A stretch of 64,000 nt of DNA from Escherichia coli (GTDB taxonomy: Bacteria; Pseudomonadota; Gammaproteobacteria; Enterobacterales; Enterobacteriaceae), in assembly GCF_003334305.1 (NCBI RefSeq), contig NZ_QOWS01000010.1; one strand, 5' to 3'. Shown piece after piece: positions 9,573 through 14,611 of this stretch. Under the pieces are notes generated by a model, which had not been told where the DNA came from, ran no database searches, and saw nothing but the letters and a program-made list of their open reading frames with translations. Position numbers and translations under genes: made by a program. Within the stretch, counting starts at the first letter, position 1, and each line of letters starts with the position of its first letter.

Positions 9573-12725
<3,153 letters not shown>

Positions 12726-12744
12726 TACAACGTGTAATCACTAA

Positions 12745-12766
12745 GGCCGCGCAAGCGGCCTTTTTT
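12745..12766 (+). terminator. intrinsic terminator after acrB
   Basis: ggccgc-gcaa-gcggcc hairpin followed by tttttt. Confidence 0.7.
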
Positions 12767-13270
12767 ATGCATAACCTACGAACATTAAGGAGTAATTGAA
12801 CCACCAACTCAGGATCTCATACGAAAACCAGTATTAACCACGGATAAAATTCATAAAAAATACTGATTGTTAGTTAATTTATATTAAGTAGCGCTAATAG
12901 ATTTAATAATCCATAATCATTTAGAGGCTATTCTTAATTATTTGCGGTAATTCTTTATTCATTCCTCGGTTATTACGTCATATTCAGAGCAATCCTGGTA
13001 TTAGTGTCACCAATTTCATCTGGCGATAATCCTGAAATGTTATGAACAGTTCGAGCAGACTGCTTTTACCTGCTGCGGGTTAGTGCTAGTATGAAAAAGT
13101 GAGTCCTGTCCCGATTCCTTCCTAATTGTAATTTTTCGTAATAATGCGATGAAAACCTGCAAAGAGTGGCTTATAGTTAAGCTAACAAACGAGAGGGCAA
13201 GTCCAGGTCAGTAAGTTTTTTCCATCCCGAAAGGTGTCCGTTAGTTCAACCGCTAAGAAGGGGACGCGTT

Positions 13271-13645
13271 ATGGATGAATACTCACCCAAAAGACATGAT
13301 ATCGCACAGCTTAAGTTTCTCTGTGAAACCCTGTATCATGACTGCCTTGCAAACCTTGAAGAAAGCAATCATGGCTGGGTTAACGACCCAACCTCGGCGA
13401 TCAACCTCCAGTTGAATGAACTGATTGAGCATATTGCGACCTTCGCACTTAATTACAAAATTAAGTATAATGAAGACAATAAGCTCATTGAGCAGATCGA
13501 CGAATATCTGGATGACACCTTTATGTTGTTCAGTAGTTATGGTATTAATATGCAGGATCTTCAGAAATGGCGGAAGTCAGGTAATCGACTATTCCGTTGT
13601 TTTGTCAATGCGACGAAAGAGAATCCTGCGAGTTTATCTTGTTAG
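13271..13645 (+). CDS. tomB: Hha toxicity modulator TomB
   Basis: 124-aa [28 protein letters not shown]... matches remembered TomB (YbaJ). Confidence 0.93.
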
Positions 13646-13670
13646 AATTATTACAACCATGGGTAGAAGT

Positions 13671-13889
13671 ATGTCCGAAAAACCTTTAACGAAAACCGAT
13701 TATTTAATGCGTTTACGTCGTTGCCAGACAATTGACACGCTGGAGCGTGTTATCGAGAAAAATAAATACGAATTATCAGATAATGAACTGGCGGTATTTT
13801 ACTCAGCCGCAGATCACCGCCTCGCCGAATTGACCATGAATAAACTATACGACAAGATCCCTTCCTCAGTATGGAAATTTATTCGCTAA
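13671..13889 (+). CDS. hha: haemolysin expression modulator Hha
   Basis: 72-aa product from ATG 13671 ([27 protein letters not shown]...); the track ORF 13425..13889 is an upstream extension overlapping tomB. Confidence 0.93.
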
Positions 13890-14059
13890 TAAATAATTCG
13901 CTTTCGGAGCTATAACCGGCTGTTTATTAAGAATTTTATACTTTTCACCATGAAGACATACCCTATGTGATCTTTATCACACAGATGTAATGGGAACGTT
14001 CTCTTCACTGACTTTTCGTCTTACTGTGTTGCCGCATTTTCAGCAACCGGAGGTCAGTA

Positions 14060-14611
14060 ATGAGCACAGAAAAAGAAAAGATGATTGCTGGTGAGTTGTA
14101 TCGCTCGGCAGATGAGACGTTATCTCGCGATCGCCTGCGCGCTCGTCAGCTTATTCACCGATACAATCATTCCCTGGCGGAAGAGCACACATTACGCCAG
14201 CAAATTCTCGCTGATCTATTCGGTCAGGTGACAGAGGCTTATATTGAGCCAACGTTTCGCTGTGACTATGGCTATAACATTTTTCTCGGTAATAATTTTT
14301 TCGCCAACTTCGATTGCGTGATGCTTGATGTCTGCCCTATTCGCATCGGTGATAACTGTATGTTGGCACCAGGCGTTCATATCTACACGGCAACACATCC
14401 CATCGACCCTGTAGCACGTAATAGCGGTGCTGAACTGGGGAAACCCGTCACCATCGGTAATAACGTCTGGATTGGCGGACGCGCGGTCATTAACCCTGGT
14501 GTGACCATTGGTGATAACGTCGTGGTAGCCTCAGGTGCAGTTGTCACAAAAGATGTCCCGGACAACGTTGTCGTGGGCGGTAATCCAGCCAGAATAATTA
14601 AAAAATTGTAA
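14060..14611 (+). CDS. maa: maltose O-acetyltransferase (hexapeptide-repeat)
   Basis: 183-aa ORF with left-handed beta-helix hexapeptide repeats in the C-terminal half. Confidence 0.92.

Follow-up and report, generated by a model that had tools for sequence, protein, structure and literature searches.

The stretch of Escherichia coli DNA analysed here (the window, 64,000 nucleotides in total) carries two small adjacent genes, tomB and hha, located downstream of acrB. Both genes were established from the ORF listing and the raw sequence, open with an ATG, and encode proteins of 124 and 72 amino acids, respectively. In the ORF listing, the hha frame is entered from an upstream TTG at 13425; the gene itself starts with the ATG at 13671, and its stop codon ends at 13889. 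The interval 13271-13889, singled out in an earlier note on this DNA, has the tomB start and the hha stop as its exact limits. That note had also placed the pair downstream of acrB, and this position was borne out, as acrB ends at 12725 and tomB starts at 13271. The maa gene comes after hha and is followed by ylaC and pdeB, and the order acrA-acrB-tomB-hha-maa-ylaC-pdeB agrees with the RefSeq annotation. The coordinates of all features are collected in Table 1.

Table 1. Features of the tomB-hha locus and of the DUF1778/GNAT island in the window.
Feature	Position	Strand	Description
acrB	9576-12725	+	upstream of tomB
acrAB intrinsic terminator	12743-12762	+	GC-rich stem of 8 bp, then a T run (terminator scan)
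AT-rich spacer	12766-13115	.	34.9% GC; length conserved, sequence poorly to moderately conserved; probable H-NS/Hha binding platform
Invariant block	13126-13143		TTGTAATTTTTCGTAATA; contains the CpxR-type box
CpxR-type tandem pentamer	13128-13142	+	GTAAT-N5-GTAAT = GTAATTTTTCGTAAT; within the invariant block
sigma70 promoter of tomB-hha	13149-13177	+	ATGAAA-17-TATAGT (promoter scan); -10 at 13172-13177
5'UTR of tomB	13184-13270	+	about 86 nt; start deduced from the -10 element
CCATCCC motif	13222-13228	+	near-invariant amid variable sequence (alignment of 49 UTRs); candidate anti-SD site
Shine-Dalgarno (SD) sequence	13258-13264	+	AAGGGGA
tomB (ybaJ)	13271-13645	+	Hha toxicity modulator, 124 aa, four-helix-bundle family
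Element in tomB codons 58-67	13442-13471	+	sigma70-like TTCGCA-18-TATAAT, 10/12 matches (promoter scan)
Perfect palindrome in tomB	13448-13465	+	CTTAATT-ACAA-AATTAAG; between the TTCGCA and TATAAT hexamers
tomB-hha spacer	13646-13670	+	25 nt, without a terminator (terminator scan)
hha	13671-13889	+	H-NS-binding co-repressor, Hha/YmoA family, 72 aa; 'toxin' of the pair
maa	14060-14611		after hha
DUF1778/GNAT island	47163-49576		2.4 kb, between cyoE and yajR
DUF1778/TacA-like antitoxin gene	47347-47658	+	Pfam TacA1 (PF08681), 1.3e-17
GNAT acetyltransferase gene (TacT-like toxin)	47642-48184	+	Pfam Acetyltransf_7, _10, _1

The two genes have the layout of an operon, as they are small, adjacent, separated by the 25-nt spacer and preceded by one conserved promoter. 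The spacer measures 23-28 nt in all 81 enterobacterial loci compared. Co-transcription of tomB and hha has been described, and their 25-bp spacing was among the arguments of the original toxin-antitoxin (TA) proposal (PMC2408971). Megablast against 5426 complete E. coli genomes found a 1334-bp stretch of the locus, annotated with tomB and hha, in 5425, and in many of them it is 100% identical. In the loci fetched from other Enterobacteriaceae, hha follows tomB in every case (81/81), and acrB lies upstream of tomB wherever the flank reached it (77/81). The locus is the chromosomal tomB-hha operon, which is core in enterobacteria and already known.

The identity of the genes is supported by profile, structure and K-12 matches, which all agree. 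TomB matches the Pfam family YbaJ (PF10757; E 1.1e-65, model positions 1-117 of 118), the NCBIfam equivalog NF007948, 'Hha toxicity modulator TomB' (234 bits, cut-off 108), and the YmoB structure PDB 2mn2 (2.3e-50). Hha matches the Pfam family HHA (PF05321; E 9.5e-40, model positions 1-57 of 57) and the NCBIfam Hha model (169 bits, cut-off 90), and it is matched over residues 1-72 by the Hha structures PDB 1jw2 and 2mw2. The two proteins are identical to b0461 and b0460 of K-12 MG1655, respectively. The earlier note had proposed that failure of the translations to align with Hha and TomB would speak against its naming of the genes; both translations match, and the identification therefore holds. 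Further matches of Hha include YmoA (2k5s), YdgT (2jqt) and PDB 4icg, a closely related Salmonella Hha in an Hha-H-NS complex. Hha is chiefly an H-NS co-repressor, and the 4icg match is consistent with this role. Both Cys18 and Asp48 are present in Hha, the latter being a residue used for H-NS binding.

Cys18 of Hha has been described as conserved and functionally important, and the same work named the TomB residues that surround its buried Cys18 and form the Hha-contact surface (PMC5155140). Conserved residues present in the TomB described here are K15, L17, C18, E19, C25, N49, E53, A56, E78, D81, D82, F84, F108, C110, F111 and C124. They include the buried Cys18 context (K/R15-L17-C18-E/D19), the channel residues F108 and F111, and the Hha-contact residues N49, E53, A56, E78, D81, D82 and F84. 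Position 77 is D, where the published description gives E77 (PMC5155140).

The gap between acrB and tomB is 545 bp long and has a GC content of 38.2%, compared with 51.5% for the window. Among the 38 intergenic gaps of the surrounding 41 kb, none is longer; the next longest measures 235 bp, and the acrB-tomB gap exceeds it by a factor of 2.3. The length of the gap before tomB ranges from 435 to 559 bp across genera (71 loci where it was measurable). In Providencia, it amounts to 525 bp with 28.6% GC, and the upstream gene is mltD, not acrB; in Proteus, it reaches 657 bp with 26.5% GC. A 28-genus alignment was used to obtain a conservation profile of the gap, which was divided into five zones. 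The acrAB terminator block at the 5' edge is kept across genera (0.87 identity). Positions 12766-12835 and 13056-13115 are essentially unconserved or variable (0.06-0.38 identity), the AT-rich part at 12846-13050 is moderately conserved, and conservation within the gap peaks at 13116-13185.

Several other candidates were considered for this gap and rejected. A search of positions 12600-14200 against Rfam, with E up to 1, gave a single hit, a Trp_leader match at the acrB terminator (20.5 bits, below the gathering score of 41) that is just the terminator; no Rfam family is present in the gap. A small ORF of 40 amino acids on the minus strand (13040-13162) covers the least conserved block, and a repeat or mobile element was dismissed given a genome copy number with a median of 1 and a maximum of 2.

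The sigma70 promoter of tomB-hha lies in the conserved block, and its -10 hexamer, TATAGT, is shared by all informative loci (80/80). The hexamers ATGAAA and TATAGT have also been given for a constitutive RpoD promoter in front of tomB-hha (Shimada 2014, PMC3946193). A fragment spanning -198 to -1 drives GFP expression in E. coli and is repressed by Hha (PMC2408971). In Salmonella, three promoters were predicted in the 1 kb before tomB, and only the proximal one was active; the two upstream candidates gave no GFP signal, and deletion of the proximal promoter mimicked the gene deletions (PMC5133643). An RNA polymerase (sigma-S) ChIP-seq peak has been assigned to tomB (PMC4447067), and our own conversion of coordinates between genome versions places this peak at about -185 to +10 of tomB. 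From the -10 element, we infer a transcription start site (TSS) near 13184, about -87 relative to tomB.

Because this promoter sits at 13149-13177, the 5'UTR of tomB would be about 86 nt long, and most of the region at 12.77-13.27 kb is not leader. The earlier note had called this region an unusually long AT-rich leader; the unusual length and the AT-richness stand, and the term leader does not apply to most of it. The upstream part of the gap, of about 350 bp, would instead be an untranscribed regulatory spacer. An H-NS genomic-SELEX site has been marked in the acrB/tomB spacer (Shimada 2014, PMC3946193). The spacer is probably a binding platform for H-NS and Hha, and it is most plausibly through this H-NS-bound DNA that the reported negative feedback by Hha/H-NS operates.

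Upstream of the -35 hexamer, two GTAAA-like pentamers stand in tandem, 5 nt apart, which is the arrangement expected of a CpxR promoter. The CpxR consensus is GTAAA-N5-GTAAA. Of 80 informative loci, 67 carry an exact copy of the box GTAATTTTTCGTAAT; its distance to the -10 is 44 nt in 66 of these and 45 nt in one. Within the 64-kb window, it is the sole match. RegulonDB lists both tomB and hha as targets of CpxR, and the CpxR iModulon includes tomB (PMC7657598); tomB is missing from the direct CpxR targets determined by ChIP-exo (Choudhary 2020, PMC7657598). In Yersinia, phosphorylated CpxR (CpxR~P) binds the ymoBA promoter, where the motif lies at -162 and the mapped TSS2 at -106, and a second TSS was reported at -188 (PMC13353760). 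The motif-to-TSS offset of 56 nt in Yersinia equals the distance here between the box at -143 and the start at about -87. By analogy with the -188 TSS of Yersinia, an additional upstream start for tomB-hha is possible.

Within the 5'UTR, the CCATCCC motif is complementary to the SD region, which reads GGGGAUG in most genera, and it is a candidate anti-SD site. A structured leader was also considered. RNAalifold, applied to 49 UTRs, paired only UCCC with the GGGG of the SD sequence (4 bp), with no covariation or compensatory changes. The fold of the single sequence has a z-score of 0.11 and is no better than those of shuffled sequences. Hairpins seen by eye between CCATCCC and the SD sequence are weak (-2 to -7.5 kcal/mol) and inconsistently placed. 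On account of these RNAalifold, z-score and hairpin results, the idea of a structured leader was dropped.

Another element of small size lies within the tomB coding sequence. Synonymous variability was computed over 79 distinct tomB sequences, and the normalised synonymous-site entropy over codons 58-65 (13442-13465) is 0.195, compared with a gene mean of 0.609; a minimum of this value was reached by 116 of 20000 permutations. The palindrome at this site is unique within the window and can be written more generally as CTTAATT-AYAA-AATTAAG. Its codons are nearly fixed (Leu60 CTT in 76/79 sequences, Ile64 ATT and Lys65 AAG in 79/79 each), and CTT for Leu and AAG for Lys are non-preferred codons. 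As judged by eye, only the two short core elements of the degenerate MarA/SoxS/Rob marbox consensus fit the palindrome, which is too weak a likeness to claim, and the Fur and FNR consensus sequences do not appear to fit. A limited full-text check of the literature found no description of a tomB-internal element. An RpoD-holoenzyme SELEX peak, given without an assigned sequence, was reported between tomB and hha (Shimada 2014, PMC3946193).

This element might be a functional control point, acting either as an internal promoter-operator for TomB-independent hha transcripts or as an RNA hairpin or processing site by which the Hha:TomB ratio is set; we regard this as a tentative proposal and rather doubt it. 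The internal -10 differs among genera (TACAAT, TATGCT), and this variation, together with the Salmonella upstream-promoter deletion that mimicked the loss of hha, weighs against a strong independent promoter. The CpxR-type box, the palindrome and CCATCCC were not found in Providencia or Proteus, which share only the long AT-rich gap.

Published work has ascribed a TA-like nature to tomB-hha (PMC2408971, PMC5155140, PMC8610362), and TomB is known to counteract Hha (PMC2408971, PMC5155140), as the earlier note had stated on both points. The proposal of Garcia-Contreras 2008 was based on the shared operon, the 25-bp spacer, the small size of the proteins and negative autoregulation by Hha; the toxicity of induced Hha was relieved by YbaJ, which was hence renamed TomB (PMC2408971). 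In E. coli, this toxicity is indirect, involving prophage lysis genes and rare tRNAs, and was seen on induction (PMC2408971). In Salmonella, it is conditional and occurs under acid stress (PMC5133643). Hha toxicity has been shown mainly on over-expression, or under acid stress in Salmonella.

Regarding the mechanism, protection from Hha by TomB or YmoB requires oxygen, and the contacts with Hha are only transient; TomB/YmoB enhances the oxidation of Hha Cys18 to SOxH species, upon which Hha unfolds (PMC5155140). Hha/TomB has accordingly been reviewed as the founding type VII TA system (PMC8610362). [quoted passage not shown] In the proteins described here, the type VII target residue (Hha Cys18) and the TomB channel residues are present; the oxidation itself is known from the literature.

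The distribution of the two genes differs from what the term TA module usually implies, as tomB-hha is not jointly inherited as a patchy, mobile or accessory module. In a tblastn search of 72,556 plasmids, Hha homologues were found on at least 5000, with 3882 conjugative plasmids among the 5000 counted. TomB homologues were found on only 14 'plasmid' records in the same set; many of these are 1-5 Mb in size and evidently chromosomal, and 12 of the 14 were typed as non-mobilizable. Two plasmid hha loci were inspected, and neither has a TomB-like gene next to hha; an ORF upstream of hha on a Klebsiella IncF plasmid was considered as a possible partner and rejected, as it has no similarity to TomB. 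Because Hha spreads widely without TomB, a regulator with a dedicated modulator fits these data better than an addiction module does. For tomB-hha, 'toxin-antitoxin' is an operational label and not a classical designation.

A second TA-type module, unrelated to tomB-hha and about 34 kb away according to the earlier note, was confirmed by the PF08681 and GNAT matches and starts 34.1 kb from tomB. The DUF1778 gene lies directly upstream of the GNAT gene and overlaps it by 17 nt, which is the arrangement of TacA/TacT-type modules. DNA identical to 47347-47658 is annotated by RefSeq as encoding a DUF1778 domain protein, and the GNAT domain matches range from 1.6e-7 to 1.8e-5. TacT-type toxins acetylate aminoacyl-tRNA. 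The island that carries this module is covered to at least 80% in 1368 of 5426 E. coli genomes (about 25%). The DUF1778/GNAT module is accessory and behaves as a typical TA module, unlike the core tomB-hha pair. This TacA/TacT-type type II module resembles the latter in comprising two small proteins with the antitoxin gene first, and differs from it in its unrelated folds and mechanism, in the 17-nt overlap of its genes and in its accessory nature.

The best explanation of the locus, which we hold with a probability of roughly 0.85, is a core enterobacterial operon for an H-NS co-regulator, that is, a type VII pair expressed from one promoter and accompanied by a CpxR-type box and an H-NS spacer. 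This analysis itself established the identity of the genes, the conserved residues, the anatomy of the locus, and how far the promoter, the box and the length of the spacer are conserved; the toxicity, the mechanism by oxidation, the binding of CpxR and H-NS and the autoregulation come from published work. According to this explanation, Hha, which is not known to contain a DNA-binding domain, binds the N-terminal domain of H-NS and strengthens the silencing of AT-rich genes; it is called a toxin because it is growth-inhibitory or lytic when over-produced. TomB counteracts Hha without a stable complex, with transient contact leading to oxygen-dependent oxidation of Cys18 and unfolding of Hha, and the pair is classed as type VII because TomB acts by oxidising Hha. 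Both genes are transcribed from the one conserved sigma70 promoter about 100 nt before tomB. The CpxR-type box, at about -56 to -42 of the deduced start, may provide an envelope-stress input, and the long AT-rich upstream DNA would be an H-NS-bound spacer that probably mediates the reported Hha/H-NS negative autoregulation.

Two rival explanations concern the nature of the pair. It could be an addiction or persistence module of the classical, type II-like kind, in which labile TomB sequesters stable Hha in a tight complex and represses its own promoter until stress frees Hha and causes arrest or death. Co-precipitation in Salmonella, the labile TomB, the TomB electrophoretic mobility shift assay (EMSA) on the promoter and persister effects (PMC5133643) point in this direction, and the antitoxin gene in first position, the short spacer, the small proteins and autoregulation fit the checklist of Garcia-Contreras 2008 (PMC2408971). 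This explanation is nevertheless improbable, since the interaction was found to be only transient, with neutralisation by oxidation (PMC5155140), and since the operon is core and syntenic (5425/5426 E. coli genomes, 81 loci), whereas the GNAT/DUF1778 pair is fully present in 25%. The plasmid data also argue against it, with Hha homologues on at least 5000 plasmids, most of them conjugative, TomB homologues on 14 'plasmid' records, and no TomB-like neighbour at the two plasmid hha loci inspected. Alternatively, the TA behaviour might be an over-expression artefact of a nucleoid-associated co-regulator and its dedicated redox modulator; at native levels, there would then be no role for a toxin. 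We give this reading considerable weight, somewhat short of even odds. The core and syntenic distribution, the abundance of solo Hha homologues on plasmids, the indirect toxicity via derepressed prophage lysis genes and rare tRNAs, for which induction was needed (PMC2408971), and the conditional toxicity in Salmonella (PMC5133643) all favour it, but the oxygen-dependent protection by TomB/YmoB has been reproduced (PMC5155140) and reviews keep the type VII class (PMC8610362). It also overlaps the best explanation and differs from it only in whether the toxicity is ever physiological.

A further rival concerns the upstream DNA. The whole AT-rich stretch of 500 bp could be transcribed as a long 5'UTR with post-transcriptional control elements, as might be suggested by the conserved length of the gap (435-559 bp across genera, with 525 bp in Providencia and 657 bp in Proteus, even with a different upstream gene) and by the more distal TSS at -188 in Yersinia (PMC13353760). 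We consider this the least probable of the explanations, because identity falls to 0.06-0.38 at 12766-12835 and 13056-13115, and the best conserved part is the promoter block (13116-13185); moreover, the acrB terminator occupies the 5' edge, and no Rfam family was found. The -198 to -1 fragment suffices for regulated expression (PMC2408971), and, in Salmonella, the upstream promoter candidates are silent and the proximal deletion mimics the gene deletions (PMC5133643).

The closest known system is tomB-hha of E. coli K-12 (b0461-b0460), in which both proteins are 100% identical to those described here; the neighbouring genes and the 545-bp gap are also shared. Over the 1335 bp that run from acrB to maa, the DNA shows 99.3% identity, with 8 mismatches and 1 gap, and the four single-nucleotide differences in the upstream gap (12752, 13047, 13058 and 13114) spare the box, the promoter and the UTR motifs. 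The Yersinia ymoB-ymoA pair is an orthologous two-gene operon (YmoB 2mn2 to TomB, 2.3e-50; YmoA 2k5s to Hha, 3.7e-34) and likewise has a TSS that lies 56 nt downstream of a CpxR motif (PMC13353760). It differs in its more divergent sequences and in the second TSS reported at -188 (PMC13353760), and in its cysteines, which are C18 and C117 in YmoB and C18, C25, C110 and C124 in TomB (PMC5155140). Other members of the HHA family are the plasmid Hha homologues (IncF, IncI/K and others), with 54-68% identity to the Hha described here, and the chromosomal paralogue YdgT/Cnu (48.8 bits for YdgT). As the plasmid Hha proteins and YdgT/Cnu are encoded without a TomB homologue, they do not belong to a two-gene module.

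The pair itself is a textbook E. coli locus that has been re-identified, with the same proteins as in K-12, and this re-identification matters little. Two corrections of annotation follow from the analysis. The upstream AT-rich DNA is to be read as a regulatory spacer with a short 5'UTR and not as a long leader, and the genes are to be read as a core H-NS co-regulator with its redox-dependent antagonist and not as a mobile addiction module like GNAT/DUF1778. Possibly new are two small items, the nucleotide-level constraint in tomB and the anti-SD-like motif in the UTR, either of which could affect the Hha:TomB ratio. If both the tomB element and CCATCCC function as proposed, the stoichiometry of 'toxin' to 'antitoxin' would be actively tuned at two unreported levels.

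Synonymous variation along tomB, measured across 79 enterobacterial tomB sequences, reaches its lowest value at window 13442-13471, corresponding to codons 58-67, where it falls to 0.195, compared with 0.609 on average (~0.006 by permutation). A sigma70-like sequence, TTCGCA-18-TATAAT, lies at the same place, and the trough also contains a perfect palindrome, CTTAATT-ACAA-AATTAAG, which is kept through the use of non-preferred codons. This element may be an internal promoter-operator of hha or an RNA element; a description of it was not found in the literature searched.

A further conserved motif lies in the tomB 5'UTR, where CCATCCC (13222-13228) is near-invariant and the rest of the UTR is variable. 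It is complementary to the tomB Shine-Dalgarno region (13258-13266), which reads GGGGAUG in most genera and GGGGACG in Escherichia, and from sequence the two form a candidate anti-SD pairing; for this pairing, no covariation was available and a thermodynamic signal was absent.

In the acrB-tomB spacer, the first ~70 bp past the acrB terminator (12766-12835) are essentially without counterpart in other genera, with a column identity of 0.06-0.15, and appear to be an Escherichia-specific insertion. The tomB-hha genes of Morganellaceae are also preceded by long and very AT-rich gaps (26-29% GC), which persist even with mltD, rather than an RND pump gene, as the upstream gene. The Providencia and Proteus loci lack the CpxR-type box (GTAAT-N5-GTAAT), the CCATCCC motif of the 5'UTR, and the palindrome within tomB. 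On the other side of the module, in the hha-maa interval, a terminator scan of the minus strand returned a 10-bp inverted repeat, CCTATGTGAT-CTTT-ATCACACAGA, at 13962-13985, lacking a convincing T run; it could be a maa operator or a bidirectional hairpin.

Coordinates of the gaps preceding tomB-hha in Morganellaceae and of a gene in the DUF1778/GNAT island
Feature	Location	Strand	Length
Gap before tomB-hha, Providencia	L086 976-1500		525 bp
Gap before tomB-hha, Proteus	L087 844-1500		657 bp
Sel1/TPR-repeat protein gene (in the 47163-49576 island)	window 48240-49235	minus	331 aa

The DUF1778/GNAT pair is contained in a 2.4-kb island (window 47163-49576) in the cyoE-yajR interval. Of 5426 E. 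coli genomes, 1368 carry this island at a coverage of at least 80%, and an IS3-family element splits it in some genomes (H11 and H12).

At least 5000 plasmids of the plasmid collection, the majority of them conjugative, encode Hha homologues (54-68% identity) without a TomB homologue, as in loci L084 and L085. On a Klebsiella IncF plasmid, a DUF1778/GNAT pair lies ~0.8 kb from hha and a ParD/RelE-ParE pair ~1.7 kb from it. Several PLSDB records designated as plasmids (H20-H22, H27, H29, and H30) are 4-5 Mb in size, carry chromosomal loci such as tomB-hha, and look like mislabelled chromosomes; such records push up the plasmid counts of core genes.
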